Of a stretch of DNA of 64,000 nt, positions 354 through 34,632 are shown piece after piece. The notes beneath the pieces are model-generated. The model worked only from the letters and a program-made list of their open reading frames with translations, ran no database searches and was not told where the DNA came from. The position numbers were made by a program, and so were the translations under genes. Origin of the DNA: a virus (taxonomy: Duplodnaviria; Heunggongvirae; Uroviricota; Caudoviricetes); the IMG/VR virus record IMGVR_UViG_3300047444_000753, positions 5,256 to 69,255 of that record; one strand, given 5' to 3'. The stretch's first letter is position 1. Every line of letters starts with the position of its first letter.

Positions 354-2479
354 CCGAAGAGTCGTATATCGACCTCAATTCAAAGCTGAACCTTTGGACA
401 GACGACCACAAGATTGACTTCGAGGCGGACAAGGAAGCTGCTCGGCAGTACCACCTGCAGGAAGTCAACCGCAAATTCATGTACCACCCCTCCCTTGAGG
501 AAAAGCTGGACTACCTGTTTGTCAACGGGTACTACGACAAGAGCGTCTGGGACAAGTACGACGACGCGGAGATCAAGGATCTCTACAAGTACGCCTACGG
601 ATTCAAGCACCGCTTCACGTCGTTCCTTGGTGCCATGAAGTTCTACACGGCCTATGCCATGAAGTCCTTCGACGGCGAGACATGGATGGAGCGCTTCGAG
701 GACCGCGTTGTGGCTGTGGCTCTGGAGCTTGCCAATGGCAATTCGGAAGAGGCACGCCGGATCATCGAGGAGATCATCACCGGACGCCTGCAGCCCGCCA
801 CGCCGACCTTTGCCAACTGCGGTAAGATGCAGCGCGGCGAGCGTGTCTCCTGCTTCCTGATCGACATTCAGGACTCAATGAACTCCATCGGGCGTGCCGT
901 GAACACCGGCCTGCAGCTGTCCAAGCGTGGCGGCGGTGTCGGATTCAACATCTCCAACCTGCGTGAATTCGGTGCCCCGATCAAGCAGCTGGAGAACATG
1001 GCATCCGGTGTTCTGCCGGTCTGCAAGCTCTTCGATGACGCCTTCTCCTACGCCAACCAGCTGGGCTCCCGTCAGGGTGCCTGTGCCGTCTACATCTCCG
1101 CCCACCACCCGGACGTGTTCCGCGTGCTGGATGCGAAGAAGGAGAACGCTGATGAGAAGTCGCGCCTCAAGACGCTGTCAATCGGTCTAGTCCTCACGGA
1201 CAAGCTCTACGAGCTGGCCAAGAATGACGAGGTGCTCTACCAGTTTTCCCCGTACGACGTGGAGCGCTTCTACGGCGTACCGTTCTCCAAGGTGGACATC
1301 ACCGCCGAGTACGACAACATGGTTGACAACGCGGCCATCCGGAAGTACAAGCACAAGGACTACCCCAAGGCCCGTGACCTGTTCCAGCTGATCGCGGAGA
1401 TCCAGTTCGAGTCCGGCTACCCGTACATCCTCAACATTGACACTGTCAACCGCGCAAATCCTATTGCGGGTACGATTGATATGTCCAACCTCTGCTCCGA
1501 GATTGTACAGGTCTCCACCCCCTCCGTGCTGCGTGATGACCTCTCCTACGAGGAAGAGGGCCGGGACATTTCCTGCAACCTTGCTTCCATGAACGTCAAG
1601 TACGCCATGGATGGCGGCAACCTCGCCCAGACGGTCGAGACGGCTGTGCGCCTGCTGACCGAGGTCTCCGACATCACGTCGATCGATTCGGTTCCGTCTG
1701 TGCGCAATGGTAACGACAAATCGCACTCCATCGGACTGGGCCAGTTCGGCCTTCACCAATTTTTTATCACCGAAGGCATGCAGTATGGTGATGAGGACTC
1801 GCTTGACTTCACCAACATCTACTTCATGACTGTGGCTTTCCATGCCCTACGGGCATCATGCAAGTTGGCAGCGGAACGTGGGAAGCGTTTCTACGAATTC
1901 GAGAAATCAAAGTACGCGGATCCAGCCTACTTGACGGAGAAGTACTCCGATCCGTCCATGGTGGTGCCCAATGACAACACTGTGGCAATTTTCGAGAAAT
2001 ACGGCATTTGGATTCCGAACGAAGACAGCTGGGCTAACCTTGCAGAAGAAATTGCTGAGCACGGCCTCTATAACGCTTATCTCATGGCAGTGCCCCCGAC
2101 CGGATCCATCTCCTACGTCAACGGCGGGACGGCGTCCATCCACCCGTCTGTGGCCGCTGTGGAGATCCGCAAGGAGGGCAAGATCGGACGCGTGGCCTAC
2201 GCTACTCCGGGACTGACCAATGAGAACTACGCGGACTTCAAGGACGCCTACGATCTTGGCTGGCGTGCCGTTATCGACGTATATGCTGCTGCGCAGCCGC
2301 ACGTGGATCAGGCCATGTCGCTGACCCTGTTCTATACGAACCAAGACAGTACAAGGACCTTGAATCAGGCATACATTTACGCGTGGCGAAAAGGAATCAA
2401 GTCTCTTTACTACGCAAGGGTACGTAGTGACGCTCTTGAGGGTGCTGACGAATCCCAATGTGTCTCATGTACATTGTAG
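338..2479 (+). CDS. nrdE: Ribonucleotide reductase class Ib alpha subunit
   Basis: 713 aa with conserved NrdE blocks ([37 protein letters not shown]). Confidence 0.95.
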
Positions 2480-3221
2480 TGTTTTGGTAATCTACGGTTT
2501 ACGACTTTCAACCTGCTCTGAGTATAGGTATGTGGGGCTTACCACAAAAACTGCTCAGAGCAGGTTGAAAGGGCATATAAAGAGAACGAATAACCCTAAC
2601 CAGAAAAACTATCCTGTCAATGATTGGATAGCCAAGCATGGTAGCGATATGATAGTGGTTGATGTCCTGCAAGAGCTTATTGACCAGCCTTACGATGAAC
2701 TACTGCTAGCTGAAATTTATTGGATCAGTAAATTGCGTTTGGAAGGTAACCATCTTTTAAACATTGCCGAAGGCGGCAAAAGTTCTAAAGGCCACAAGTG
2801 GACTGAAGAGCGAAGAAAGATAGTGTCCGAGCGGATGAGGGGGAATACCTATGCAAAAGGTTGGCCCCAGCCGCGAGGCCCCAAGCACTCTGAATGGCAG
2901 AAGCGTAAGTGGTCTGAAGAACGTTCCGGAAGTATTACCGGTGAGCTAAACCCTAATTTTGGTAAATTCGGAGAGGATCACCCGGCATATGGACGAACTT
3001 TTTCTGAAGAGGCTCTAAAGAAAATTTCGGATGCAAAGAAGGGATCGAAAAATCCTAACTACGGCAAAGAAATGACGCAGGCGGAAAAAGATCTACGTTC
3101 TGCAGCACTTAAGGGCGTCCCTCAACCGAAGAATGCCTCCAATGCACATAAGAGACATCACACTAATAAAGGGGTTTCCAAGCCGGAAACCTGTAGGTAC
3201 TGTAAGGAAGAAAACGACTAA
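2427..3221 (+). CDS. GIY-YIG homing endonuclease with NUMOD3-like repeats (free-standing HEG)
   Basis: VIYGL...RYVGLT...R..GH motif, then repeated NPNYGK/NPNFGK/GNTYAKG modules. AT-rich (about 42% GC) compared with its neighbours. True start is probably TTG 2484; the annotated 5' end overlaps the nrdE stop. Confidence 0.8.
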   Translation: MTLLRVLTNPNVSHVHCSVLVIYGLRLSTCSEYRYVGLTTKTAQSRLKGHIKRTNNPNQKNYPVNDWIAKHGSDMIVVDVLQELIDQPYDELLLAEIYWISKLRLEGNHLLNIAEGGKSSKGHKWTEERRKIVSERMRGNTYAKGWPQPRGPKHSEWQKRKWSEERSGSITGELNPNFGKFGEDHPAYGRTFSEEALKKISDAKKGSKNPNYGKEMTQAEKDLRSAALKGVPQPKNASNAHKRHHTNKGVSKPETCRYCKEEND

Positions 3222-4200: not shown

Positions 4201-4407
4201 ATGGAATTTTTTACAAACGATATCGTCAAGCTTACTTCTGACGACTCGGTGAAGCTGGGCAAGATTGCTGAAATCGACGGGGACTTGATCCTCATCGGCG
4301 AAACATGGTACGATCTAAACGTATACAGCATTGAAGTCCTCTTCTCCGAGTCGTCAGGTATCGGGAATCCTCTAGTTGACACGGTCCAAACAACCGTGAT
4401 ACAATAG
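4201..4407 (+). CDS. hypothetical protein (68 aa), doubtful
   Basis: AT-rich ORF. Its 3' end contains a strong promoter that feeds the tRNA array. Confidence 0.3.
   Translation: MEFFTNDIVKLTSDDSVKLGKIAEIDGDLILIGETWYDLNVYSIEVLFSESSGIGNPLVDTVQTTVIQ
4376..4405 (+). promoter_or_regulatory. sigma70-like promoter TTGACA-18-TACAAT upstream of tRNA-Trp
   Basis: Exact -35 hexamer, 18-nt spacer, TACAAT -10 box. Confidence 0.6.
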
Positions 4408-4414
4408 AGACAAT

Positions 4415-4488
4415 GCGCAGGTAGTTTCAATTGGTTAAAATAACGGTCTCCAAAACCGTGGTTATAGGTTCGAGTCCTATCCGGCGTG
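4415..4488 (+). tRNA. tRNA-Trp (CCA)
   Basis: Cloverleaf folds. Anticodon loop CTCCAAA, T-arm ATAGG/TTCGAGT/CCTAT, one acceptor-stem mismatch, no encoded CCA. Confidence 0.75.
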
Positions 4489-4505
4489 CTGTACAACTGA
4501 ATATG

Positions 4506-4514
4506 TGGTACAAT
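4506..4514 (+). promoter_or_regulatory. extended -10 element TGgTACAAT
   Basis: TGnTACAAT directly before tRNA-Pro. The same GGTACAAT motif recurs at 8383. Confidence 0.35.
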
Positions 4515-4526
4515 GTATAAACACCT

Positions 4527-4600
4527 CGGGGTGTAGCTCAGCTTGGTAGAGCGCCTGTTTTGGGAACAGGAAGTCGCAGGTTCAAATCCTGTCTCCCCGA
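4527..4600 (+). tRNA. tRNA-Pro (TGG)
   Basis: D-arm GCTC/GAGC, anticodon stem CCTGT/ACAGG with loop TTTGGGA, T-loop TTCAAAT. Confidence 0.85.
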
Positions 4601-4611
4601 CGCAGTACAAT

Positions 4612-4682
4612 GGGATATTAGCTCAATGGTAGAGTCTCTGTCTTCCAAACAGATTACGGGAGTTCGATCCTCCCATATCCCT
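4612..4682 (+). tRNA. tRNA-Gly (TCC)
   Basis: Acceptor GGGATAT/ATATCCC, anticodon loop CTTCCAA, T-loop TTCGATC. Confidence 0.85.
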
Positions 4683-4705
4683 CGATCTGAGAGTGAGTTG
4701 TTGAT

Positions 4706-5140
4706 TTGAAGACGTGTACGTCCTGTAACGAGTCCAAACCTTTGGATGAATTTCAGAAGCGGGCATCCGCAGCTGACGGGCACACCAGCAAATGTAAGGT
4801 TTGTAAACGAGCCTACGACAATGACCACTACCGGAACAATCCAGATAGACGAGCATATATACGGGTAAATTCAAGTACTCGACGGGAAGAAAATCGGCTT
4901 TGGCTGATTGAATACCTTAGGGATCATCCCTGTGTAGACTGCTCAGAATCTGATATAGTAGTACTAGAGTTCGACCACCAGCAGGACAAGTTGTATAATA
5001 TCTCTGATATGATCAACTCACACGGTTTGTCTCGCGTTCAGGAAGAAATCTCGAAGTGTCAGGTAAGATGTGCTAACTGTCACAAGAGAAAAACGGCCCG
5101 AGATTTTGGTTGGTTGAAAGCTATAGGTTTGCCTCAATAA
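4706..5140 (+). CDS. HNH homing endonuclease
   Basis: TTG start. HNH motifs CVDCSES...LEFDH...NISD...CANCH. AT-rich, sits between tRNAs, and its 3' end overlaps tRNA-Thr. Confidence 0.85.
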   Translation: MKTCTSCNESKPLDEFQKRASAADGHTSKCKVCKRAYDNDHYRNNPDRRAYIRVNSSTRREENRLWLIEYLRDHPCVDCSESDIVVLEFDHQQDKLYNISDMINSHGLSRVQEEISKCQVRCANCHKRKTARDFGWLKAIGLPQ

Positions 5141-5205
5141 CTCAGTTCGGCCAGAGTGTCTCCTTTGTAACGAGAAAGTCGGGGGTTCGAATCCCTCTTG
5201 AGGCT
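5131..5205 (+). tRNA. tRNA-Thr (TGT)
   Basis: Acceptor GCCTCAA/TTGAGGC, D-arm ACTC/GAGT, anticodon loop TTTGTAA with a 31-39 C·C mismatch, T-loop TTCGAAT. Confidence 0.7.
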
Positions 5206-5220
5206 CGAATAATTGAATAT

Positions 5221-5293
5221 GCCCTTGAAGCTCAGGTGGTAGAGCGCTGGTCTGAAGAACCAGAGGTTTCCGGTTCGACGCCGGAGAAGGGCA
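5221..5293 (+). tRNA. tRNA-Phe (GAA)
   Basis: Anticodon stem CTGGT/ACCAG with loop CTGAAGA. T-arm TCCGG/TTCGACG/CCGGA. Confidence 0.8.
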
Positions 5294-5329
5294 CGCTTAA
5301 GCAACAGCAACCCATCGATAGGAATTACC

Positions 5330-5485
5330 ATGGCAGGTCTAGACCCAAAGCTCCAAGGATCCCAGTACACCGAACGTACCGAGAACGCACGCATCGCACT
5401 CGTCAACCAGCAGACTGGTGAGTCCGTCGCGACCGAAAACTCGGAAAACAAGCGAATTAGCAAGGTAGCCAACAAGGGCCACTAG
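5330..5485 (+). CDS. small hypothetical protein (51 aa) inside the tRNA array
   Basis: ATG preceded by AGGAA; GC-rich third codon positions. Below the ORF-track size cut-off. Confidence 0.3.
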   Translation: MAGLDPKLQGSQYTERTENARIALVNQQTGESVATENSENKRISKVANKGH

Positions 5486-5536
5486 TCTCAGCTGAGATCA
5501 GGTCCGTTGGCTACACAGCCAGCGGGCCTTTTCTTT

Positions 5537-5607
5537 TCCCCGTTCGTCTAACGGCAGGACGCTGTCTTTTGGCGGCAGCTATCGAGGTTCGAATCCTTGA
5601 CGGGGAA
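5537..5607 (+). tRNA. tRNA-Gln (TTG)
   Basis: Anticodon stem CTGTC/GGCAG with loop TTTTGGC, T-loop TTCGAAT, acceptor TCCCCGT/ACGGGGA. Confidence 0.75.
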
Positions 5608-5621
5608 CGCAGTACATTTAG

Positions 5622-5692
5622 TCCGGTGTCGTATAGCGGCATTACGCTCCCCTCTGGAGGGAGTCACTGAGGTTCGAATCCTTGCACCGGAA
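5622..5692 (+). tRNA. tRNA-Gln (CTG)
   Basis: Paralogue of the preceding Gln tRNA. Anticodon stem CTCCC/GGGAG with loop CTCTGGA. Confidence 0.75.
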
Positions 5693-5795
5693 CGCAGCTT
5701 GTATTTTCTGGAAGACCTGTGTATGCTGATAACGGATAGGCATATGAACCGTCACCGGCCCTGAGGGGAAGCGTGGAATACAAGTCATCCGTTGC

Positions 5796-5869
5796 AGTCG
5801 CTTAGCTCAGTTGGTCAGAGCGCGTCCCTGATAAGGACGAGGTCGTGAGTTCAATTCTCACAGTGGCTA
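5796..5869 (+). tRNA. tRNA-Ile (GAT)
   Basis: D-arm GCTC/GAGC, anticodon stem CGTCC/GGACG with loop CTGATAA, T-loop TTCAATT. Confidence 0.85.
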
Positions 5870-5884
5870 CGTAGTAAGAAATAG

Positions 5885-5956
5885 GCTCCCGTCTATGTTG
5901 GTTTGGATCTCGGACTTTCAATCCGGGCTACGCCGGTTCAATTCCGGTCGGGAGTA
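5885..5956 (+). tRNA. tRNA-Glu (TTC)
   Basis: Anticodon stem TCGGA/TCCGG with loop CTTTCAA, T-loop TTCAATT, acceptor GCTCCCG/CGGGAGT. Confidence 0.75.
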
Positions 5957-5957
5957 C

Positions 5958-6080
5958 GGGCTGTAGCTCAAAGTAGAGCGCTTTGGATATCGGTAGTCAT
6001 GAATGCCGATGACCACCTTCAGGGTCGCTCCCTGAGGGTCTGTGAAAAGAAGATATTCTGGGGTAACGTCCAGACGGCCT
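5958..6080 (+). other. disrupted tRNA-like element (tRNA 5' and 3' portions separated by about 75 nt containing a 9-bp hairpin)
   Basis: 5' GGGCTGT + D-arm GCTC/GAGC at 5958–5979. A T-arm-like CTGGG/TCCAG and a 7/7-complementary 3' acceptor ACGGCCT at 6056–6080. No anticodon arm. Hairpin CCTTCAGGG/CCCTGAGGG at 6015–6037. Confidence 0.3.
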
Positions 6081-6086
6081 AACCAA

Positions 6087-6159
6087 GCTCCCTTGGACTA
6101 GCGGTAATGTCGCTTCCCTCTCACGGAAGAGATCACGGGTTCGAATCCCGTAGGGAGTA
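6087..6159 (+). tRNA. tRNA-Glu (CTC)
   Basis: Acceptor GCTCCCT/AGGGAGT, anticodon stem CTTCC/GGAAG with loop CTCTCAC, T-arm ACGGG/TTCGAAT/CCCGT. Confidence 0.75.
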
Positions 6160-6213
6160 CAGGGCATCTATGCCTGTAGTATGGGCTAACCCCTCAGAGG
6201 CAAAAATAGAAAT

Positions 6214-6300
6214 GGAAGTATGGCCGAGTGGTAAGGCAGCTGTCTTGAAAACAGTAGTCGGGTGTGAAAGCCCGCGTGGGTTCAATCCCTACTACTTCCG
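6214..6300 (+). tRNA. tRNA-Ser (TGA), type II
   Basis: Long variable arm. Anticodon stem GCTGT/ACAGT with loop CTTGAAA. Acceptor GGAAGTA/TACTTCC. Confidence 0.8.
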
Positions 6301-6342
6301 CTAGCTACAGGAGGGCCTAATGGGATGGGACCTGTAGCTTCT

Positions 6343-6411
6343 GGACGGGGCGCTGGGACGCACAGGAGTTTTACACACTCCTTCCGCAGGGATCGATACC
6401 CTGACCGTCTA
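6343..6411 (+). tRNA. tRNA-Val (TAC)-like with a defective or non-canonical D-arm (possible pseudogene)
   Basis: Perfect anticodon arm GGAGT/TTTACAC/ACTCC and T-arm CAGGG/ATCGATA/CCCTG; acceptor pairs 6 of 7. The D-stem cannot be formed. Confidence 0.4.
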
Positions 6412-6412
6412 C

Positions 6413-6493
6413 GCCTTGGTGTTGGAATGGTAGACATGCTGGCCTCAAAAGCCGGTGCCTTAGTGCGTGTGGGTTCGAGTCCCACCCGAGGTA
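6413..6493 (+). tRNA. tRNA-Leu (CAA), type II
   Basis: Anticodon stem CTGGC/GCCGG with loop CTCAAAA, long variable arm, T-arm GTGGG/TTCGAGT/CCCAC. Confidence 0.75.
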
Positions 6494-6504
6494 CGCAGTA
6501 TATT

Positions 6505-6577
6505 GGCCCAGTAACTCAGCGGTGAGAGTGCCACTCTTATAAGGTGGAAGTCGAGGGATCAACACCCTCTTGGGCCA
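6505..6577 (+). tRNA. tRNA-Ile (TAT) (AUA decoder) or Met-like
   Basis: Anticodon stem CCACT/GGTGG with loop CTTATAA. Unusual T-loop ATCAACA. Acceptor GGCCCAG/TTGGGCC. Confidence 0.55.
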
Positions 6578-6658
6578 CGCACGGACTTATTTGCTACGAC
6601 GTTGCTTATCGGATCCGGAAACAGTCTCAACCTGAGGCTGCGGTAAAAGCCCGCACCT

Positions 6659-6731
6659 GCCTTCATAGCTCAGTGGATAGAGCGCTTCGCTACGGACGAA
6701 GAGGCCGGGGGTTCGAATCCCTCTGAGGGCA
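6659..6731 (+). tRNA. tRNA-Arg (ACG)
   Basis: D-arm GCTC/GAGC, anticodon stem CTTCG/CGAAG with loop CTACGGA, T-loop TTCGAAT. Confidence 0.85.
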
Positions 6732-6742
6732 CGCTAGACAAT

Positions 6743-6827
6743 GGAGAGTAAACCCAGCAGGTGCTGTGGCTTTGATTGCTAATCAGATGGCGGGTAAAAC
6801 CGTGGGTTTCGAATACTCTGCTCTCCG
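6743..6827 (+). tRNA. tRNA-Ser (GCT)-like, type II, non-canonical (possibly degenerate)
   Basis: Acceptor GGAGAGT/GCTCTCC. Anticodon stem TTTGA/TCAGA with loop TTGCTAA. Long variable arm. The T-stem closes with T53-A61 and the 8–9 linker is extended. Confidence 0.35.
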
Positions 6828-6830
6828 CGC

Positions 6831-6858
6831 TTGACACAGGTCTAATCTGTGGTATAGT
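6831..6858 (+). promoter_or_regulatory. sigma70-like promoter TTGACA-16-TATAGT inside the tRNA array
   Basis: Consensus -35 and near-consensus -10, immediately upstream of tRNA-Leu(GAG). Confidence 0.6.
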
Positions 6859-6869
6859 AGAGTAACTAT

Positions 6870-6954
6870 GTCAGTGTGGCGGAATGGTAGACGCGCTAGC
6901 TTGAGGTGCTAGTGGGCTGAAATGCTCGTGTGGGTTCGACTCCCATCATTGATA
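6870..6954 (+). tRNA. tRNA-Leu (GAG), type II
   Basis: Anticodon stem CTAGC/GCTAG with loop TTGAGGT, long variable arm, T-arm GTGGG/TTCGACT/CCCAT. Confidence 0.8.
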
Positions 6955-6955
6955 C

Positions 6956-7038
6956 GCAGGTGTGGCGCAATTGGTGGACGCGTACGATTTAGGATCGTAT
7001 ACTTTGATACACTGTGGGTTCGAATCCCATCACCTGTA
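6956..7038 (+). tRNA. tRNA-Leu (TAG), type II
   Basis: Anticodon stem TACGA/TCGTA with loop TTTAGGA, T-arm GTGGG/TTCGAAT/CCCAT. Lies 1 nt after the previous tRNA. Confidence 0.8.
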
Positions 7039-7165
7039 CGCGGGAGTTCCTGCTCCCACTCCGATAAGTAGCTGAAGAATAAACAGGCGACTGAAACGTC
7101 GTAAATCTAATCGGTAACCGGGGAACAGTCGGCTTCAGCACCTGCAGACCCCGAAGTGCCGGTAT

Positions 7166-7236
7166 GGGTCTTTCGTTCAAAGGCAGGACCGCTGGCTTTT
7201 ACCCAGCAGATAGGGTTTCGAGATCCCTAGGACCCA
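7166..7236 (+). tRNA. tRNA-Lys (TTT)
   Basis: Anticodon stem GCTGG/CCAGC with loop CTTTTAC. Acceptor GGGTCTT/AGGACCC. T-arm slightly irregular. Confidence 0.65.
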
Positions 7237-7361
7237 CTCCCGATCAAAGCCTCTGCTTGCATGCTCAAATTCGATTGAAGTACGCCGTCTTCTAGTAACG
7301 GATCCCGGACTTCACGGACGCTGGTATACCGCTCGCGGCTCTTTGAAACCGTATACCATAT

Positions 7362-7434
7362 GCCCCCGTAGCTCAGAGGACAGAGCAGGACCCTTCTAAA
7401 GTCTTGGCCGTAGGTTCGAATCCTACCGGGGGCA
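7362..7434 (+). tRNA. tRNA-Arg (TCT)
   Basis: Acceptor GCCCCCG/CGGGGGC, D-arm GCTC/GAGC, anticodon loop CTTCTAA, T-arm GTAGG/TTCGAAT/CCTAC. Confidence 0.75.
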
Positions 7435-7435
7435 C

Positions 7436-7879
7436 GTGAATACAGAATTCAATGACGCCATCTTCGATTACGAAGAACAGTCGTACACCATCAAAAATAA
7501 GTTCGAGTCCGGCACCACGGTCGAAATGGAATTTTGGCTGACGGAGACCAACAGACTCGACCCCACCCTGTACGTTGAAGTCGGACTGAGGTCCTACACC
7601 AAGAGACGGCAGCAGGATCGCCCCGACTTTGAGTTCTCTGTAACAGGCAAGGATGGCCTACGTCCTGCAATCTGGGCGACCAATCTCCTACTCAAGTTCC
7701 CTGAGTTCGTCCTCCGCGACTGGGATTTCCGGGACAAAGATCGAGTGGTCTACACCGTTTACTGGTCTGAATCTCGCCGCAGGAGCGTCTACCACAAATG
7801 GCTGTCTAGGCACGGCTTCTACTTCGATCAGGTGCTCGGTACCAAATGCCTGACAAAGGTATTTCCACGGGTCAAATAG
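7436..7879 (+). CDS. hypothetical protein (147 aa)
   Basis: GTG start 2 nt after tRNA-Arg. Coding-like composition. Confidence 0.6.
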   Translation: MNTEFNDAIFDYEEQSYTIKNKFESGTTVEMEFWLTETNRLDPTLYVEVGLRSYTKRRQQDRPDFEFSVTGKDGLRPAIWATNLLLKFPEFVLRDWDFRDKDRVVYTVYWSESRRRSVYHKWLSRHGFYFDQVLGTKCLTKVFPRVK

Positions 7880-7922: not shown

Positions 7923-8183
7923 ATGATGTCACTCTGGGCAATGGTACAAGGAGACCCAGTCTTCATGCGGCGCGTCAACGGATGGCTCGCCATCTTCTGG
8001 CTGGCCATGATTCCCGTCAGCATCGTCACCGGCTGGGTCAGCTCGGTCGAGTACGTCTCCGCACTCTCCATCTGGGCTCTGGTCTCTGGTCACTGGTCCG
8101 CTTGGCAGGCTGCTCGCGTCGAAGTCCGTCAGGAAGAGATCGAGAAGCAGCGTCAGGACGAATTGGACACCACAAACAACTAG
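7923..8183 (+). CDS. small membrane protein (2 predicted TM helices)
   Basis: AAGGAG RBS, then an ATG-ATG start. Hydrophobic segments WLAIFWLAMIPVSIV and ALSIWALVSG. Confidence 0.7.
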   Translation: MMSLWAMVQGDPVFMRRVNGWLAIFWLAMIPVSIVTGWVSSVEYVSALSIWALVSGHWSAWQAARVEVRQEEIEKQRQDELDTTNN

Positions 8184-8508: not shown

Positions 8509-8682
8509 ATGGCACAGACAAGAGAAGACCGTGTCTATTTGGCTTACAGGGTCTACAACATTCATTTCGTGAAGCAGGGGTCAAAGACCCCTCGCGCTCA
8601 CGCAATTCTTGAGGTCTGCGCACGATTCAACATGACGGTAAATGATGTACGAAACATCGTAAACGCCCGAGTGAAGAAGTGA
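8509..8682 (+). CDS. small hypothetical protein (57 aa), possible HTH
   Basis: ATG 2 nt after the tRNA 3' end; the GGGGG run in the tRNA tail could serve as an SD. Basic C-terminus. Confidence 0.3.
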   Translation: MAQTREDRVYLAYRVYNIHFVKQGSKTPRAHAILEVCARFNMTVNDVRNIVNARVKK

Positions 8683-8762: not shown

Positions 8763-9497
8763 ATGACCAAGCTCAACCAGATCATCGCCATTGAAGGCGG
8801 ACTCAAGAACACTTCCAAGCGCGATATCACCGACGCTTACCACAAGATCCAGCGCACCACGAGCCTCAACGGCATCTCCCGTACCTACAAGCCCAAGGAC
8901 GAAGAGGGCGACCAGCTCCCGTCCGAAAGCACCCTCGTGCAGACCCGTGTTGAGGACGTACTCACCGAGGTCTCCGACTCCCTGACCCGACTCTTCGATG
9001 TCACCCTGACCAAGGAGACCGCCAACGGCTCGGCCAAGGCCGATGTCGTCGTGGACGGCAAGGTCATCGTCAAGGACGCCCCGGTCACCTACCTGCTCTT
9101 CCTTGAGAAGCAGCTCGTTGATCTGAAGACCTTCGTCGCGGCCCTCCCGACGCTGGATCCGGCAGAAGTCTGGAACCAGAACACTGCAACCGGCGACTGG
9201 GCCACCGAGGTCACTCAGACGGTGAAGACCAAGAAGATCCCGAAGAACTGGGAGAAGTCTCCGGCAACGGACAAGCACCCGGCACAGGTCGAGATCTTCC
9301 ACGAAGACGTCATCGTCGGCACGTGGAGCACCACCAAGTTCTCCGGTGCCCTGCCCCGTGAGCGCCGCAATGCGCTCCTGACCCGCGTCGATGACCTGCT
9401 GACCGCAGTCAAGTTTGCCCGCGAGGATGCAAACTCCACCACGGTCACCGATGTCGCGACCGGCAAGAAAGTTTTCGACTTCCTGTTTTCAGCGTAG
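8763..9497 (+). CDS. hypothetical protein (244 aa)
   Basis: AAGGAA RBS. No recognisable motifs. Confidence 0.7.
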   Translation: MTKLNQIIAIEGGLKNTSKRDITDAYHKIQRTTSLNGISRTYKPKDEEGDQLPSESTLVQTRVEDVLTEVSDSLTRLFDVTLTKETANGSAKADVVVDGKVIVKDAPVTYLLFLEKQLVDLKTFVAALPTLDPAEVWNQNTATGDWATEVTQTVKTKKIPKNWEKSPATDKHPAQVEIFHEDVIVGTWSTTKFSGALPRERRNALLTRVDDLLTAVKFAREDANSTTVTDVATGKKVFDFLFSA

Positions 9498-9575
9498 TCG
9501 AACAAGAATCCCCGTTGAGCGCGGGGTAGGTGCCATGCGGCACCCAAACTGAAACTGACGATTCAGATTCAAAAT

Positions 9576-9650
9576 AGCTCTCAGTGGTGGTTCGAGTCCA
9601 CCCCCTCCGACCAATCAACGGAGGGTAGCCCAAATGGTAGAGGCAGGCTC
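9576..9650 (+). other. permuted tRNA-like element: 3' half (T-arm + acceptor 3' strand + encoded ACCA), then a 5-nt linker, then 5' half (acceptor 5' strand + D-arm)
   Basis: GGTGG/TTCGAGT/CCACC + CCCTCCG + A + CCA at 9581–9611, then ATCAA, then CGGAGGG-TA-GCCC...GGGC at 9617–9645. The two acceptor strands pair 7 of 7 but in inverted gene order. Confidence 0.35.
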
Positions 9651-9729
9651 TTAGATTCAGATTATCGCTCTAGATTCAGAAGCTTCACGCTAGACTGATC
9701 GACCGTATACACGCCTTAGCTTTGAAATA

Positions 9730-9810
9730 AGGGTTCGATTCCCTTCCCGGCCTCTGTGTCCTAGACACTGTTTCACCCAAATGGCCGGGTGGCATAATGG
9801 TAATGCGCAA
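9730..9810 (+). other. second permuted tRNA-like element (T-arm + 3' acceptor upstream of the cognate 5' acceptor + D-arm)
   Basis: AAGGG/TTCGATT/CCCTT + CCCGGCC at 9730–9753. About 30 nt later comes GGCCGGG-TG-GCAT/AATGGTA/ATGC at 9784–9807. The acceptor strands pair 7 of 7. Confidence 0.3.
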
Positions 9811-9922
9811 ACTTCTTAAATTGATGTGTATACTTAAATGTGCAGTAGACTAGCATAATGTGGCTATAAACACTCAATCGAAGAGCGGCGGGAGCCGGAT
9901 ATGCTCCCGTCGCTCGCCACAT

Positions 9923-10022: not shown

Positions 10023-10475
10023 ATGTCGGATTACTCAGACTCTATCGCAATTATGTTCCCGGCGAATTACCCGGACGATAGGGCCGATCCGCACTGCACC
10101 CTGATCTGGCTGGGAGAAACTACCAGCTTCATGTTCTCCAAGGAGGACGTGCTGGCCGTTCTGAAGGCCGATGACTACACCCCGAACGACGAATACACCC
10201 CTCTCCCGCCCAAGATCTTCGGCAAGGATGACGAGCGCGTGGTCGTTCTCCCGCTCGATGATGCGGACGGCTCCCTGCAGGCCCTGCGTGACAAGCTAGA
10301 GAAGGCTCTGGGAGCCCTCGGGATCCAGTCCCCGTCCGAATACACCACCTATGTCCCACACGTGACCACAGAGGACTACGTCCCCGGCGTCACCAAGATG
10401 GCCAACTACCCGGTGCCGGACAAGATCAAGCTGGGCGCTGCCGAGCTCTGGTGGGGCGACGAGCGAGTCTCATAA
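10023..10475 (+). CDS. 2H phosphoesterase superfamily protein (LigT / 2'-5' RNA ligase-like or Acb1-like cyclic-nucleotide phosphodiesterase)
   Basis: 150 aa with the two H-x-T/S-x motifs of the 2H fold (HCTLIW and HVTT). GAAGGA RBS. Sits directly after a tRNA. Confidence 0.65.
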   Translation: MSDYSDSIAIMFPANYPDDRADPHCTLIWLGETTSFMFSKEDVLAVLKADDYTPNDEYTPLPPKIFGKDDERVVVLPLDDADGSLQALRDKLEKALGALGIQSPSEYTTYVPHVTTEDYVPGVTKMANYPVPDKIKLGAAELWWGDERVS

Positions 10476-13617: not shown

Positions 13618-14331
13618 GTGAATGACATACTGACACCCTTCTGGACCCGTCCGCTGTGCGCCCTCGACACGGAGACCACCGGAGTTGATTCGTTCAACGA
13701 CCGGATAGTCACCTGTTCCATGATTTACGATGATGGACGAGGAAACCAGACCGAACGGGACTGGCTCATAAACCCCGGCGTCGAGATACCCACGGGTGCA
13801 TCCGACGTGCACGGCATCACCAATGAAGTTGCCCAGCGGGACGGCATGGAGCCCCAAAAAGGCATCTACGAAATTGCCACCTCGCTCTACCAGATGGTCA
13901 GTGCTGGTGTTCCGCTGGTGGTCTACAATGCACCCTTTGACCTCACCCTGCTGATCGCCGAGTTCCGGCGTTGGGGTATCGGCTGGGATCCTGTGTTCAA
14001 CAAGGTCATCGATCCTCTTGTGATCGACAAGGCCGTGGACAAGTACCGAAAGGGCAGTCGCAAGCTCATCGACACTGCCAAGCACTACGGCTACGACCTC
14101 ACCAACGCCCACGCGGCAGATGCGGACAACAAGGCGGCTATCCACATTGCCCGCCATATCTTCCCGGCCCACTTCACACCGGACACGACGCTGGAAGAGG
14201 TCCACCAGCTGCAGATCGGCTGGAAGGCGGCACAGGCCCGGAGCTTCCAAGCGTATCTGCGCAAGGAGAAGGACCCAGAGGCCGTCATCAATCAGGAATG
14301 GCCCGTCATGACAACACAGGAGAACCGATGA
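13618..14331 (+). CDS. DnaQ-like 3'-5' exonuclease (DEDDh family)
   Basis: Exo I ALDTETTG, Exo II YNAPFD, Exo III H..ADADNKAA. GTG start. Confidence 0.8.
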   Translation: MNDILTPFWTRPLCALDTETTGVDSFNDRIVTCSMIYDDGRGNQTERDWLINPGVEIPTGASDVHGITNEVAQRDGMEPQKGIYEIATSLYQMVSAGVPLVVYNAPFDLTLLIAEFRRWGIGWDPVFNKVIDPLVIDKAVDKYRKGSRKLIDTAKHYGYDLTNAHAADADNKAAIHIARHIFPAHFTPDTTLEEVHQLQIGWKAAQARSFQAYLRKEKDPEAVINQEWPVMTTQENR

Positions 14332-15798: not shown

Positions 15799-15872
15799 CA
15801 CGGAGTGGGGAAGTTCGGTAACCCGTTGGGCTCATAACCCGAAGATCATCGGTTCAAATCCGATCTCCGTAA
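15799..15872 (+). tRNA. initiator tRNA-fMet (CAT)
   Basis: C1·A72 mismatch. Three consecutive G-C pairs in the anticodon stem (TTGGG/CCCGA), loop CTCATAA. T-arm ATCGG/TTCAAAT/CCGAT. Confidence 0.8.
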
Positions 15873-15888
15873 CGCAACAACTAAATAA

Positions 15889-16393: not shown

Positions 16394-16906
16394 GTGGATG
16401 ATGATAAGCATATAGGTATACACTGGCACCGAAGAAAATACAGCAAAGATCAGTTCATCGAAGCTTGGCGGACTGGCGATAGCATCACGGATGTCGTACG
16501 AAAACTGGGTCAGTATGGCTTTGCCGGAAATATTAATACAGTATCTAGAACAGCGGCTAAACTAGGCCTAACTCGGGAGCATTTCCAATATGAGGCACTG
16601 AGTAGATCTGCTGGACGAAAATTAACCATACCACTTGAAGAAATTCTTGTTTCTGGCTCTAGCTACGGTACCGATAGACTGAAACAGCGACTTTTCAAGG
16701 CAGGACTAAAAACTAGGCAGTGTGAGCAATGCAATATCACAGTCTGGCAGGGGGTTCCGGCCCCACTTAGTCTAGATCATATAAATGGTATAAGTGATGA
16801 CCATAGGCTTGAGAACCTTAGAATACTATGCTACAATTGCCATGGACTAACGGAAACTTACTCAGGTAAGAATCGTAAACCGCTTGGCCGTACCTCAGAG
16901 GTCTGA
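16394..16906 (+). CDS. HNH homing endonuclease
   Basis: GTG start abutting tRNA-His. HNH motifs CEQCN...LDHINGISDDHRLENLRILCYNCH. AT-rich. Confidence 0.8.
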   Translation: MDDDKHIGIHWHRRKYSKDQFIEAWRTGDSITDVVRKLGQYGFAGNINTVSRTAAKLGLTREHFQYEALSRSAGRKLTIPLEEILVSGSSYGTDRLKQRLFKAGLKTRQCEQCNITVWQGVPAPLSLDHINGISDDHRLENLRILCYNCHGLTETYSGKNRKPLGRTSEV

Positions 16907-22569: not shown

Positions 22570-23073
22570 ATGATCAACATATATCAAGACGTAGACGGTG
22601 TCCTTAGCCCCTTCTCCAAGGGTGCCCCGAGGACAAACACCATGTGGAAGGGCGAGTGGCGCACGGAGCGTATAGCAGGCTTTGACATGCTGTGGTCCGT
22701 AGAGCTCATCGACGCCCTGAAGGAGCTCGACAACCGGGAGGATGTCAAGTTCATCTGGCTCACCTCATGGGAGGACATGGCGGTCGAATTCTTCGCCCCC
22801 GTGGTCGGTATCGGCGCAGACTGGCCGGTACTCTCCTCCAACGACGCACAGGACGATCTCAAGACGTGGTGGAAGCTGCGTGCGATCCACGAGCACATCG
22901 CCGCAACAGCACCGGAAAAAGCTGTCTGGCTGGATGACGACATCAACTACGATGTCGGCGGAAAGACGTTCGTACAAGAGATGGGTGACAGCTTGCTGGC
23001 CGTCAACCCCAACCGAAACCATGGACTGACTGTAAAGCACCTCAAGAGGATACAGGAATTCATTGACAACTAG
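22570..23073 (+). CDS. HAD-superfamily hydrolase/phosphatase-like protein
   Basis: N-terminal DVDGVL (HAD motif I, DxDG). Starts 2 nt after the tRNA. Confidence 0.5.
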   Translation: MINIYQDVDGVLSPFSKGAPRTNTMWKGEWRTERIAGFDMLWSVELIDALKELDNREDVKFIWLTSWEDMAVEFFAPVVGIGADWPVLSSNDAQDDLKTWWKLRAIHEHIAATAPEKAVWLDDDINYDVGGKTFVQEMGDSLLAVNPNRNHGLTVKHLKRIQEFIDN

Positions 23074-23732: not shown

Positions 23733-23803
23733 GGCGGTTGGGATGGATGGAAAGTCGCTCCCCTGCAAAGGGATAGATGCCGGTTCGATTCCGGCAATCG
23801 CCT
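23733..23803 (+). tRNA. tRNA-Cys (GCA)
   Basis: Acceptor GGCGGTT/AATCGCC, anticodon loop CTGCAAA, T-arm GCCGG/TTCGATT/CCGGC. Confidence 0.7.
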
Positions 23804-23870
23804 CCAAGTAGTTTACTTCTGTGTGTTTTTATGCTAATCTTGACGTAACGATTCGAAGAAAGGATGACAA

Positions 23871-24371
23871 GTGAGTACTATTACATCATCGGCAATACGC
23901 GTGGATGTTATGAACGCGACCTATGAGCCTCTGGGGGCTGCAAAGCTCTCACGCGCCCTAGCGCTTGTCATCGAAGGCCGAGCCGTCATCGTGGAGTCGG
24001 ACGACACTCGGATGGTCCGTTCCATGGGCGTGGATTTCCCACTTCCCAAGGTGATCCGGCTGCTCTCCGCCCTCAAGGTCCCCTTCTACACGGCTGAGGT
24101 CTACTTCTCCCGCGAGGGTCTGCTGGACCGAGACCGCCACAAGTGCGGCTACTGCAGTGAGCACGCCACCACCCACGACCACATCCTGCCGAAGTCCCGT
24201 GGCGGACGTGACGAGTGGATGAACGCGATCGCTGCCTGCAGCCGCTGCAACAACCGCAAGGGTGACAGGACTCCGGAAGAGGCAGGAATGCCACTTCTGT
24301 TTAAGCCGACCATCCCCATGAGGATCTACCTGCGCAGTGACAAGAAGCCGCGCCGCAAGGTCCGCAACTAG
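23871..24371 (+). CDS. HNH endonuclease
   Basis: HNH motifs CGYC...HDHILPKSRGG...N...CSRCN. GTG start with AAAGGA RBS. Confidence 0.8.
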   Translation: MSTITSSAIRVDVMNATYEPLGAAKLSRALALVIEGRAVIVESDDTRMVRSMGVDFPLPKVIRLLSALKVPFYTAEVYFSREGLLDRDRHKCGYCSEHATTHDHILPKSRGGRDEWMNAIAACSRCNNRKGDRTPEEAGMPLLFKPTIPMRIYLRSDKKPRRKVRN

Positions 24372-33348: not shown

Positions 33349-34632
33349 GTGAACAATATGCCAGCAATCATGGTTCTTGATACGAGTGTACTTCTAGCCG
33401 CAGGGAAGAAGGCCTTGTACTCATTTGAACAAAATGATCTGGTCATTCCTTACACCGTGCTGAAAGAGCTTGAGTCCAAGAAATCCGATCCGGAACTGGG
33501 CCGCATGGCGCGTTCGGTAATCAAGGAGCTCGACAACCTCAACGAGACGGGCGACATCAAGACCGGCGTCAGCCTTGGAGAAGATTTCGGTAGCATTCGG
33601 GTCGAGGTCAATCATGTCGGAGATGTCCCGGAGATCCTTCAGCCGTATCCTTCAAACGATACCAAGATCATCACGGTTGCCGCCTACCTGACCGGACAGG
33701 CCGATCAAGAAGTCTTCCTCGTTTCCAAGGACATCGCGCTCCGCATCGTCGCCTCTACGGTGGACGTCAAGACCCGGGACTTCACCCCGAACTTCGACGG
33801 CAACTTCATTGACAAGGTGGAGTCCTTCGACGTTCCGGTCGAGGCCATCGATGAGATCCACGAAGAGGGCGACGTCAAGCTGACGCTAAAGGTGCCCATG
33901 AACGCTGGTGTCATCCTGCGCTCCGAGATCAACCCCAAGCACTCGGCCCTCGCCATCGCCAAGGGGGATTACTCCTTCAAGATCATCGATGACCAGAAGG
34001 TCAAGGGCCTTGAATCGCACAGCGCCGAACAGGCCATCGCGATCGAGTACCTGATGGATCCGAAGATCAAGATCGTCTCCCTCGGTGGCCGTGCCGGTAC
34101 AGGTAAGACCACACTGGCGCTGGCCGCTGGCATCGAGCAGCTGAACGACTACAAGAAGATCACGGTGTTCCGCTCCATGCACGCTGTCGGCGGCGAGGAG
34201 CTTGGCTTCCTCCCGGGCACCGAGCAGGAGAAGATGGATCCTTGGACACAGGCGATCTACGACTCCCTCGAATCCTTCATGGACAAGAGCCAGATCAACG
34301 CTCTCAAGATGAAGGGCCAGATCGAAGTCCTGCCGCTGACCCACATCCGTGGCCGTACGCTCCACAACCGCTTCGTGATCGTGGATGAGGCGCAGAACCT
34401 CCACAAGGATGTCCTGATGACCGCTCTGTCCCGTCTGGGTCAGAAGTCCAAGGCCGTCCTGAGCTGGGACGCCGCACAGCGTGACAACATGTACGTTGGC
34501 CGCTTCGATGGGGTCTATGAGGTCGCCAGCCGACTTCTCGGGGAAAAGCTCTTCGGCCACGTATCGCTGCAGCGCTCCGAGCGTTCGGACGTTGCGGACC
34601 TTGTGACCCGGAAGCTGGACGATCTCAACTAG
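33349..34632 (+). CDS. PhoH-like ATPase with N-terminal PIN domain (YlaK-like)
   Basis: PIN-like IMVLDTSVLL, then Walker A GGRAGTGKTTLA. Confidence 0.85.
   Translation: MNNMPAIMVLDTSVLLAAGKKALYSFEQNDLVIPYTVLKELESKKSDPELGRMARSVIKELDNLNETGDIKTGVSLGEDFGSIRVEVNHVGDVPEILQPYPSNDTKIITVAAYLTGQADQEVFLVSKDIALRIVASTVDVKTRDFTPNFDGNFIDKVESFDVPVEAIDEIHEEGDVKLTLKVPMNAGVILRSEINPKHSALAIAKGDYSFKIIDDQKVKGLESHSAEQAIAIEYLMDPKIKIVSLGGRAGTGKTTLALAAGIEQLNDYKKITVFRSMHAVGGEELGFLPGTEQEKMDPWTQAIYDSLESFMDKSQINALKMKGQIEVLPLTHIRGRTLHNRFVIVDEAQNLHKDVLMTALSRLGQKSKAVLSWDAAQRDNMYVGRFDGVYEVASRLLGEKLFGHVSLQRSERSDVADLVTRKLDDLN

Follow-up and report, generated by a model that had tools for sequence, protein, structure and literature searches.

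A dense tRNA gene array and a conserved pairing of DUF7873 with tRNA mimics in the tRNA island of an uncultured actinophage

We analyzed a 64,000-nucleotide stretch of viral DNA (Caudoviricetes; IMG/VR record IMGVR_UViG_3300047444_000753, positions 5,256 to 69,255), hereafter called the window, and in particular the transfer RNA (tRNA) gene array at window positions 4376-7443. The array is very probably the polycistronic tRNA operon set of a phage, a near-complete minimal decoder that has been reshaped by the insertion of an HNH endonuclease gene and by cassette swaps. It is real and very dense, yet it belongs to an already known class and is ordinary for large phages, and its value is that of a well-documented case of large actinophages building such a decoder. 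The main interest lies in its non-canonical tRNAs, a structured spacer RNA, start codons that abut tRNA genes and, above all, a candidate module of a DUF7873 gene and tRNA mimics.

tRNA genes, transcription and decoding capacity of the array

In the window, ARAGORN called 28 plus-strand tRNA genes and none on the other strand, and Rfam at its gathering threshold gave the identical 28; by both methods 18 of them lie inside 4376-7443. Rfam E-values of the called array genes were between 1e-6 and 1e-13, with the exception of Glu-UUC (31 bits). Together with two non-canonical genes described below, the array totals 18 canonical and 2 non-canonical tRNA genes in 3,021 nucleotides (nt), which corresponds to 6.0-6.6 tRNA genes per kb (18 to 20 genes). 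An earlier note, made from the sequence alone, had counted about 20 tRNA genes in 3 kb and had proposed tRNA-finding software as the check. The count holds, with 18 genes called by software (the majority) and two backed by comparative evidence, and the ∼29 foldable tRNAs that the note saw across the window compare with 28 called plus 2 non-canonical genes. The isoacceptors that it listed (two each for Gln, Glu and Arg, three for Leu) were all recovered. So were its shortest spacers, which are 1 nt long: discriminator A6411 is followed by C6412 and tRNA-Leu from 6413, and discriminator A6954 by C6955 and tRNA-Leu(UAG) from 6956. The dense cluster is real, but the wording "extremely dense" was overstated, as published viral tRNA clusters have 2-10 genes per kb and 6.6 falls inside this range; those clusters comprise 15-37 tRNA genes and in some cases include HNH genes (PMC6409571). 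By the definition of Morgado and Vicente (PMC6409571), viral tRNA gene clusters are recognized by at least 15 genes, at least 2 tRNA genes per kb and location in a virus genome, and the array shows all of these (18 genes in the span, 28 in the window).

The source of this DNA is an uncultured large phage of Actinobacteria, a distant relative of Arthrobacter phage Racecar. Its phage nature is evident from terminase, lysin/endolysin and tail-like genes in the window. The closest cultured phages are the ∼194-kb Arthrobacter phages Racecar (MN234206), Mimi, Talia1610 and Atuin, and IMG/VR contigs are closer to the window than these. In a megablast search with the span 4376-7443, no phage record covered more than 5% of it, nor even 10% at 85% identity or more. 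For comparison we used the Racecar locus (L001), further relative loci numbered L002-L006 and L008-L010, and the Logan contig L015. The IMG/VR relative L002 is ∼85% identical to the window over 14 kb, and L015 agrees with the window in gene layout, its DUF7873 protein being identical. A metagenome scan using the ribonucleotide reductase small subunit gave a single additional short locus only. Racecar and a number of IMG/VR contigs share the gene order of the array. A tRNA island of ∼20 kb (4376-24452) has the span 4376-7443 as its promoter-proximal portion. The features under study are collected in Table 1.

Table 1. Features of the tRNA array and of the adjoining part of the tRNA island (window coordinates; ORF, open reading frame; aa, amino acids; MFE, minimum free energy; z, z-score of the fold).
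Feature	Position	Strand	Evidence or remark
Sigma70-like promoter P1, TTGACA-18-TACAAT + TG extension	4376-4405	+	10 nt upstream of tRNA-Trp
tRNA-Trp(CCA)	4415-4489	+	ARAGORN, Rfam
tRNA-Pro(UGG)	4527-4601	+	ARAGORN, Rfam
tRNA-Gly(UCC)	4612-4683	+	ARAGORN, Rfam; 100% identity to L002 copy
HNH gene, putative homing endonuclease	4706-5140	+	PHROG 2255 "HNH endonuclease", E 5.6e-34
tRNA-Thr(UGU)	5131-5206	+	ARAGORN, Rfam; allele strongly diverged from that of L002
tRNA-Phe(GAA)	5221-5294	+	ARAGORN, Rfam
Conserved small ORF, 51 aa	5330-5485	+	55% identity over 38 aa to Racecar gp122; called as gene on L015
Terminator-like 13-bp hairpin + U-tract	5500-5539	+	Ends exactly at tRNA-Gln 5' end
tRNA-Gln(UUG)	5537-5608	+	ARAGORN, Rfam
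tRNA-Gln(CUG)	5622-5693	+	ARAGORN, Rfam
Lineage-specific insert, 98 nt	5697-5794	+	Missing from L002; no fold signal, z = +0.4
tRNA-Ile(GAU)	5796-5870	+	ARAGORN, Rfam
tRNA-Glu(UUC)	5885-5957	+	ARAGORN, Rfam; lowest Rfam score, 31 bits
Structured tRNA-like RNA (Glu-Glu spacer, 129 nt)	5958-6086	+	MFE -53.2 kcal/mol, z = -4.4
tRNA-Glu(CUC)	6087-6160	+	ARAGORN, Rfam
tRNA-Ser(UGA), class II	6214-6301	+	ARAGORN, Rfam
Non-canonical tRNA-Val(UAC), predicted	6343-6411	+	Cloverleaf MFE fold, z = -2.0; synteny; covariation
tRNA-Leu(CAA)	6413-6494	+	ARAGORN, Rfam; 1 nt past Val-like gene
tRNA-Ile(UAU), T-loop AUCAACA	6505-6578	+	ARAGORN, Rfam
tRNA-Arg(ACG)	6659-6732	+	ARAGORN, Rfam
Non-canonical class II tRNA-Ser(GCU), predicted	6743-6828	+	z = -2.8; synteny; double-change pairs
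Sigma70-like promoter P2, TTGACA-16-TATAGT + TG extension	6831-6858	+	11 nt upstream of tRNA-Leu(GAG)
tRNA-Leu(GAG)	6870-6955	+	ARAGORN, Rfam
tRNA-Leu(UAG)	6956-7039	+	ARAGORN, Rfam; single C6955 between Leu(GAG) and Leu(UAG)
Conserved ∼100-nt spacer	7065-7165	+	95% identical in L005 and L006; weak fold signal, z = -1.3
tRNA-Lys(UUU)	7166-7237	+	ARAGORN, Rfam
Lineage-specific insert, 124 nt	7238-7361	+	Missing from L002; z = +0.3
tRNA-Arg(UCU)	7362-7435	+	ARAGORN, Rfam
147-aa ORF, GTG start directly after tRNA-Arg(UCU)	7436-7879	+	Discriminator, C, GTG
DUF7873 gene, same tRNA island	8763-9497	+	Pfam PF25283, E 1e-104
Permuted tRNA-like module 1	9578-9647	+	Model R1, 70.4 bits
Permuted tRNA-like module 2, within long covarying helix (∼9683-9850)	9721-9811	+	Model R1, 70.2 bits

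The elements at 6343-6411 and 6743-6828 were not called by ARAGORN and stayed without an Rfam tRNA hit at a cutoff as loose as E ≤ 10. Their assignment as tRNA genes is supported by cloverleaf folds, synteny and compensatory changes. The Val-like element has a 3-bp D-stem, a short D-loop, the T-loop AUCGAUA (A54) and a G7·A66 mismatch, and its cloverleaf fold presents the anticodon loop UU-UAC-AC. By position its homologue in Racecar is tRNA-Val(tac), and each of the two stands one nucleotide before tRNA-Leu(CAA). The short-D-arm form is also found in L002, L005, L006 and L009, where ARAGORN called the L009 copy, and 10 of its 20 pairs show double changes (5 sequences). The Ser-like element has A8, a U·U mismatch at 49-65 in the T-stem, a 4-bp D-stem and a long variable arm. 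In four relatives (L002, L005, L006, L009) the slot is taken by a canonical tRNA-Ser(gct); the variant itself is conserved in L008 and Racecar, with double changes at 5 of 29 pairs and none broken (3 sequences). Standard tRNA finders thus overlook conserved non-canonical phage tRNAs. The Ser(GCU)-like tRNA of Racecar (L001 8487-8572; MN234206 ∼96486-96571) lies beneath the annotated hypothetical protein gene 136, which is probably an annotation gap. An A instead of T at the first T-loop position occurs in Val-UAC (AUCGAUA) and Ile-UAU (AUCAACA), and is kept in Racecar Ile-UAU. For the slot after Leu-CAA, we considered whether Ile2-CAU and Ile-UAU are related by a C-to-U change in the anticodon; this was rejected, because the CAU tRNAs of L006 and L008 are of a different lineage, indicating replacement.

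The sigma70-type promoters that the earlier note placed at 4376 and 6831 proved to be the two best sites of our promoter scan, each with 11 of 12 consensus positions and a TG extension, and their position is conserved in relatives. The P1 hexamers are identical in L002, and a comparable promoter precedes tRNA-Trp in L003, L004, L008 and Racecar. P2 is conserved in L002, and in L006, L008 and Racecar its position is occupied by extended -10 elements. Elements of a similar kind also stand ahead of the Lys-CUU and Met-Asn clusters. The first block of tRNAs is split from tRNA-Gln by the conserved 51-aa ORF and the strong hairpin with its U-tract, which is kept in L002 despite altered loop and stem bases. 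The 3' ends in the array are almost all discriminator-C-G. The earlier statement that none of the genes encodes CCA is correct within 4376-7443, but not for the rest of the window, where tRNA-Cys (23733-23806) is the sole gene that does.

We propose that host RNA polymerase would transcribe polycistronic precursors from the two promoters and that host RNase P would make the tRNA 5' ends. At the single-C junctions, one RNase P cut could also leave the upstream tRNA as N73-C74. Since CCA is not encoded in the array, the CCA end would have to be completed post-transcriptionally.

Codon usage was counted in 31 confident genes (10,298 codons). In the tRNA set, every four-codon box (Pro, Gly, Thr, Ala, Ser, Val, Leu) has one U34 tRNA. 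Gln, Glu, Lys and Arg-AGR each have a U34 and a C34 tRNA, and the pyrimidine boxes have G34 tRNAs; for Arg-CGN there are the ACG and CCG tRNAs. It spans the commonest codons of the phage (AAG, CAG, AUC, CAC, UUC) and the rarest (AUA, CUA, AGA, CAA). There is no Leu-UAA tRNA in the window, and UUA is used in 3 of the 10,298 codons. The sole Met tRNA (15799-15873) is of the initiator type, with a C1xA72 mismatch and GGG/CCC in the anticodon stem. A hidden tRNA-Tyr was sought with the Tyr genes of Racecar and L010 as BLAST queries, which returned T-arm matches only; Tyr is absent from the window. The idea of a phage that for the most part brings its own tRNAs for decoding therefore stands as far as the anticodon list goes, but not for Tyr, elongator Met and Leu-UAA. 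By its anticodons, the predicted set fits a near-complete minimal decoder better than a rare-codon patch. Such a set would let phage translation go on if the tRNAs of the host were in short supply, depleted or cut by defense nucleases. Phage tRNAs have been reported to counter tRNA-targeting defenses, and it has been proposed that they replace host tRNAs lost to degradation or defense (PMC10264068, PMC11555353).

Several observations weigh against the reading of the array as an operon set and decoder. The missing Tyr and elongator Met tRNAs leave the phage still host-dependent, and no CCA-adding enzyme was found among the 40 window ORF translations scanned against Pfam. Over all its sites the promoter scan gave only a mild excess, with 8 sites vs. 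4.5 ± 2.2 expected from shuffles, and found no promoter for the block that opens at tRNA-Gln directly past the terminator-like hairpin. For this block, either the hairpin is leaky or the scan missed a promoter; read-through is likely, as judged from the layout.

Putative homing endonucleases, probable cassette exchange and alternative readings

The HNH gene at 4706-5140, which the earlier note had described as ending inside tRNA-Thr, was confirmed by its PHROG match and by the position of its stop codon (5138-5140); its final 10 nt overlap the tRNA gene. The translation shows the motifs EFDH...N...CANCH. Pfam HNH models gave nothing for this ORF at E 0.01, so PHROGs were needed for the assignment. 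The GC content at third codon positions (GC3) is 0.46, compared with ∼0.75 for phage genes, a base composition foreign to the phage. Where the window has 4685-5137, L002 carries an 11-nt Gly-Thr spacer. The absence from the ∼85% identical L002 marks the gene as a mobile insertion, probably of a homing endonuclease, which would have arrived with a different tRNA-Thr allele. HNH homologues of C1 mycobacteriophages likewise overlap a tRNA gene, in that case tRNA-Trp. The picture agrees with the homing endonucleases described for the T4 tRNA region (PMC2330249) and recorded in tRNA clusters of mycobacteriophages (PMC6409571).

Altogether L002 is without four segments of the window: a GIY-YIG gene, the HNH segment 4685-5137, the 98 nt at 5697-5794 and the 124 nt at 7238-7361. 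In a base-by-base alignment the remaining array is a mosaic. The Gly, Val-like, Ile-UAU and Arg-ACG genes are 97-100% identical to L002, whereas Thr, Glu-UUC, Lys-UUU and Arg-UCU are just ∼70% identical. This pattern suggests cassette exchange, and the array would evolve through cassette swaps and small insertions.

Other endonuclease genes are present in the window. A GIY-YIG/NUMOD3 homing-endonuclease gene (2427-3221; GC3 0.46), the one missing from L002, lies between the ribonucleotide reductase subunit genes. Two further HNH genes adjoin tRNAs, one at 16394-16906 after tRNA-His (GC3 0.37) and one at 23871-24371 between tRNA-Cys and tRNA-Arg(CCG). The gene caller of L015 called neither the HNH gene at 16394-16906 nor that at 4706-5140.

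We compared the array with known systems. Like Racecar, the window has the flanking ribonucleotide reductase genes upstream, then the DUF7873 gene, the tRNA-like RNAs and the lysins, and the Racecar tRNA order is nearly the same (Trp-Pro-Gly-Thr-Phe-Gln-Gln, Glu-Glu-Ser-Val-Leu-Ile-Arg, Leu-Leu-Arg-Lys). Nucleotide identity between the two is patchy at 70-85%, and the HNH gene is missing at the Racecar Gly-Thr junction. Racecar has in addition Tyr, Thr-GGU and a second Met tRNA, and inserted ORFs (Holliday junction resolvase, a 1.3-kb ORF). In phage T4, tRNAs are made from dimeric precursors and small stable RNAs occur among them; the tRNA region of phage T5 contains HNH nicking endonucleases. 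The array resembles those of T4 and T5 in its tightly packed tRNAs, which would come from multimeric precursors and of which some are without encoded CCA, in putative small stable RNAs among the tRNAs, and in homing endonuclease genes inside the cluster. Unlike T4, it belongs to a phage of another host phylum, its set is far above the eight tRNAs of T4, and an endonuclease gene overlaps a tRNA gene. As in the C1 mycobacteriophages (Bxz1, ET08) and the Streptomyces and Gordonia phages, at least 15 same-strand tRNAs are packed at 2-10 per kb in a large tailed actinophage (Morgado and Vicente, 2019, PMC6409571; 2018, PMC5966550), with small ORFs and HNH genes interspersed. The window array differs from those clusters in its new sequence, in two tRNAs missed by software and in structured non-tRNA spacers.

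A rival reading takes the array as mainly selfish cargo, in which tRNA cassettes persist because homing endonucleases drag them from one co-infecting phage to another, at little gain for the phage. In the window, three HNH genes and a GIY-YIG gene adjoin tRNA or ribonucleotide reductase genes, identity to L002 shifts between 70% and 100% from one tRNA to the next, and the T4 endonuclease SegB is known to bias inheritance in favor of the T4 tRNA region (PMC2330249). We nevertheless regard this reading as very improbable. Gene order is held across relatives whose proteins are merely 59-75% identical, tRNA stem pairing is preserved by compensatory changes, the promoters are conserved, and the anticodon set is non-redundant; all together, these features point to purifying selection on function. 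Pure codon compensation, in which the tRNAs serve only codons that the phage uses and a high-GC host decodes poorly, is possible but doubtful. It would agree with the GC content of the phage (∼56%), with cultured relatives that infect Arthrobacter and with the many tRNAs for A/U-ending codons (UAU, UAG, UCU, UUG, UGA, UUU). Several of these codons, however, are rare in the phage itself (AUA 4%, CUA 4%, AGA 4%, CAA 9%), and tRNAs are also provided for its commonest ones (AAG 87%, CAG 91%, AUC 80%, CAC 92%), which should be easy for any high-GC host. In these phage-side counts, the pattern looks like a complete minimal set rather than a patch.

In a further rival reading, the long spacers and the two uncalled elements (Val-like and Ser-like) would be junk and tRNA pseudogenes in decay. 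Both tRNA finders reject the two elements, near-universal tRNA features are broken in them (A8, A54, the short D-arm, the mismatched T-stem pair), and the spacers at 5697-5794 and 7238-7361 are lineage-specific and lack a fold signal. This explanation is unlikely in our view. The Val-like element is 100% identical in the window and L002 although the flanking canonical tRNAs differ by 15-20%, the unusual forms recur with compensatory changes in distant relatives, and the Glu-Glu spacer covaries and outfolds its shuffled versions by far.

The DUF7873 gene and permuted tRNA mimics

Downstream of the array, the tRNA island may also carry a conserved, apparently undescribed RNA-protein module, made up of DUF7873 and one or two YrlA-type tRNA mimics, with DUF7873 as a new partner of Y-like RNA; we hold the case for it, made from conservation and synteny, to be evenly balanced. 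The two tRNA-like modules that follow the gene are permuted: the T-arm and the acceptor 3' strand come first, then a loop, and last the acceptor 5' strand and the D-arm. In module 1 a 7-bp stem is followed by ACCA, which opens the loop. After the tRNA mimics, all close relatives have a hairpin with the invariant loop CGGATATG (9880-9915), a freely covarying stem and the flanks ATGTGGC/GCCACAT.

A covariance model (R1) was built from 27 permuted modules. In the window it found modules 1 and 2 only. It gave 52 bits to a module of phage Ziko on which it had not been trained and 39 bits to the Ro60-linked YrlA of phage ET08, and the background from tandem-tRNA junctions was at most 32 bits. DUF7873 and the tRNA mimics were paired in 78 of the 80 IMG/VR loci tested (of 425), where the mimics are always on the strand of DUF7873 and mostly within 650 nt past its stop codon. 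The pairing was also seen in the actinophages Racecar, GodonK and Ziko (both Gordonia phages) and NiceHouse (a Rhodococcus phage), and elsewhere in cyanophage Pam2, Rhizobium phage RHph_TM30, Klebsiella jumbo phage KpLz-2_45 and Vibrio phage D472. The cultured phages that have it thus span Actinobacteria, Cyanobacteria, Alphaproteobacteria and Gammaproteobacteria. All 15 core pairs of the mimics were kept in 15 diverse phages, 14 with double changes, in sequences that had been picked for pairing by a script.

YrlA, a tRNA-like Y RNA, is a partner of Ro60 in bacteria (Chen et al., 2014, PMC4201824), and the YrlA of M. smegmatis is cleaved by RNase P and gains CCA (PMC4201824). Like YrlA (RF02553), the RNAs at 9578-9811 combine a T-arm, a loop-closed acceptor-like stem and a D-arm within a longer helix, and the 7-bp stem plus ACCA of module 1 recalls the M. 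smegmatis RNA. Unlike YrlA, they are in tandem and lie downstream of DUF7873 instead of Ro60, their Rfam scores are sub-threshold, and the GNCGAA motif is not clearly kept. The Rfam YrlA model scored the RNAs of the window at 22 bits and those of relatives at 25-38 bits, short of its gathering score of 69 bits. It gives merely 37 bits to the published Ro60-linked YrlA of ET08 and so has little power for phage RNAs. The motif GNCGAAN0-1G, which in YrlA lies close to the 5' end, is present in exact form (GTCGAAG) in cyanophage Pam2, while actinophages have ATCGACCG or ATCAACC there. No Ro60/TROVE match was found among the 40 window ORF translations scanned against Pfam, and none of the 357 phage records returned by a Ro60 tblastn search was from an Arthrobacter phage. 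YrlA is encoded within ∼4 kb of a Ro60 gene on the same strand; among the translations scanned there was no such gene near 9578-9811, where the neighbor is DUF7873.

We also examined the region 9540-9920 as a candidate two-piece transfer-messenger RNA (tmRNA). This was rejected, as there was no ARAGORN tmRNA call, no tag frame and no G3·U70. The acceptor-like stems have C1-G72, G2-C71 and G3-C70 with no G·U, and a match to beta_tmRNA was weak (25 bits) and limited to the permuted junction.

DUF7873 has ∼7,000 homologues and is annotated as hypothetical in all 75 phage records that carry it. We found no detectable structural relative and no mention of it in the literature searched. The link to tRNA mimics makes this family of no known function a testable RNA-binding candidate, and extends Y-RNA-like tRNA mimics to phages where no Ro60 gene was found. 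The first mimic of the pairing often has an encoded ACCA. DUF7873 might act on tRNA ends, for example as decoy or scaffold in a conflict over host tRNA cleavage and repair.

Genes of other proteins related to RNA ends are located in or near the tRNA island. These are a 2H phosphoesterase (2'-5' RNA ligase superfamily, weak match; 10023-10475), an RNase T-like exonuclease (13618-14331), a HAD domain of the "Swiss Army Knife" RNA repair type (22570-23073) and a PIN-PhoH protein (33349-34632).

Start codons at tRNA 3' ends and spacers of the array

We surveyed the distance from tRNA 3' ends to start codons that open at least 50 codons, using ARAGORN on the window and 15 loci (200 tRNAs). A start codon stood exactly one base past the ARAGORN tRNA end in 12 cases, compared with 0-3 cases at each of the other offsets from -2 to +29. 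In these junctions, the discriminator and one further base are followed by ATG or GTG. Eight of the junctions are independent, and four are in the window (7436, 8509, 16394 and 22570); the Racecar start/tRNA junctions are at 7961/7962 and 15272/15273 of L001. The 57-aa gene at 8509 has an N-terminus conserved with relatives whose copy has a Shine-Dalgarno leader, and we therefore take the ATG at 8509 as the true start.

In mitochondria, start codons directly follow tRNA 3' ends, an arrangement known as tRNA punctuation. The phage junctions may represent a version of it, with tRNA processing releasing near-leaderless mRNAs. They differ from mitochondrial punctuation in that the window junctions leave one nucleotide between discriminator and start codon. 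As with mitochondrial punctuation and actinobacterial leaderless mRNAs, the product would be an essentially leaderless mRNA, made here by tRNA processing to judge from the sequence. Leaderless translation is common in Actinobacteria (PMC4633059). No phage report of such abutment was found in the literature searched. The fixed offset suggests a simple route by which tRNA processing could control the expression of a neighboring gene.

The majority of array spacers have no fold signal, and the Glu-Glu spacer is the exception. None of 200 shuffles folded as well. Its predicted structure has a 7-bp closing stem, D-like and T-like hairpins, and three extra hairpins that replace the anticodon arm. 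Compared with L005, six pairs show double changes, and the structure is kept while the hairpin sequences are largely different. A pattern scan of IMG/VR returned just two related contigs and no further copies, by which the RNA is confined to the clade of the window. The Racecar spacer at the Glu-Glu position may hold an analogous element.

The spacers at 6579-6658 and 7065-7165 are 93-96% identical in L002, L005 or L006, which exceeds the identity of several flanking tRNAs, and have no convincing coding or fold signal. The 98-nt and 124-nt inserts were considered as repeats or miniature mobile elements, and this was rejected, as no second copy was present in the window or the compared loci and neither has a fold signal. 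The Gln-Ile interval, which is the site of the 98-nt insert in the window, is occupied in L001 (4753-4824) and L009 (55-129) by 72-75-nt "Ser" tRNAs (anticodons tga, cga) without a long variable arm.

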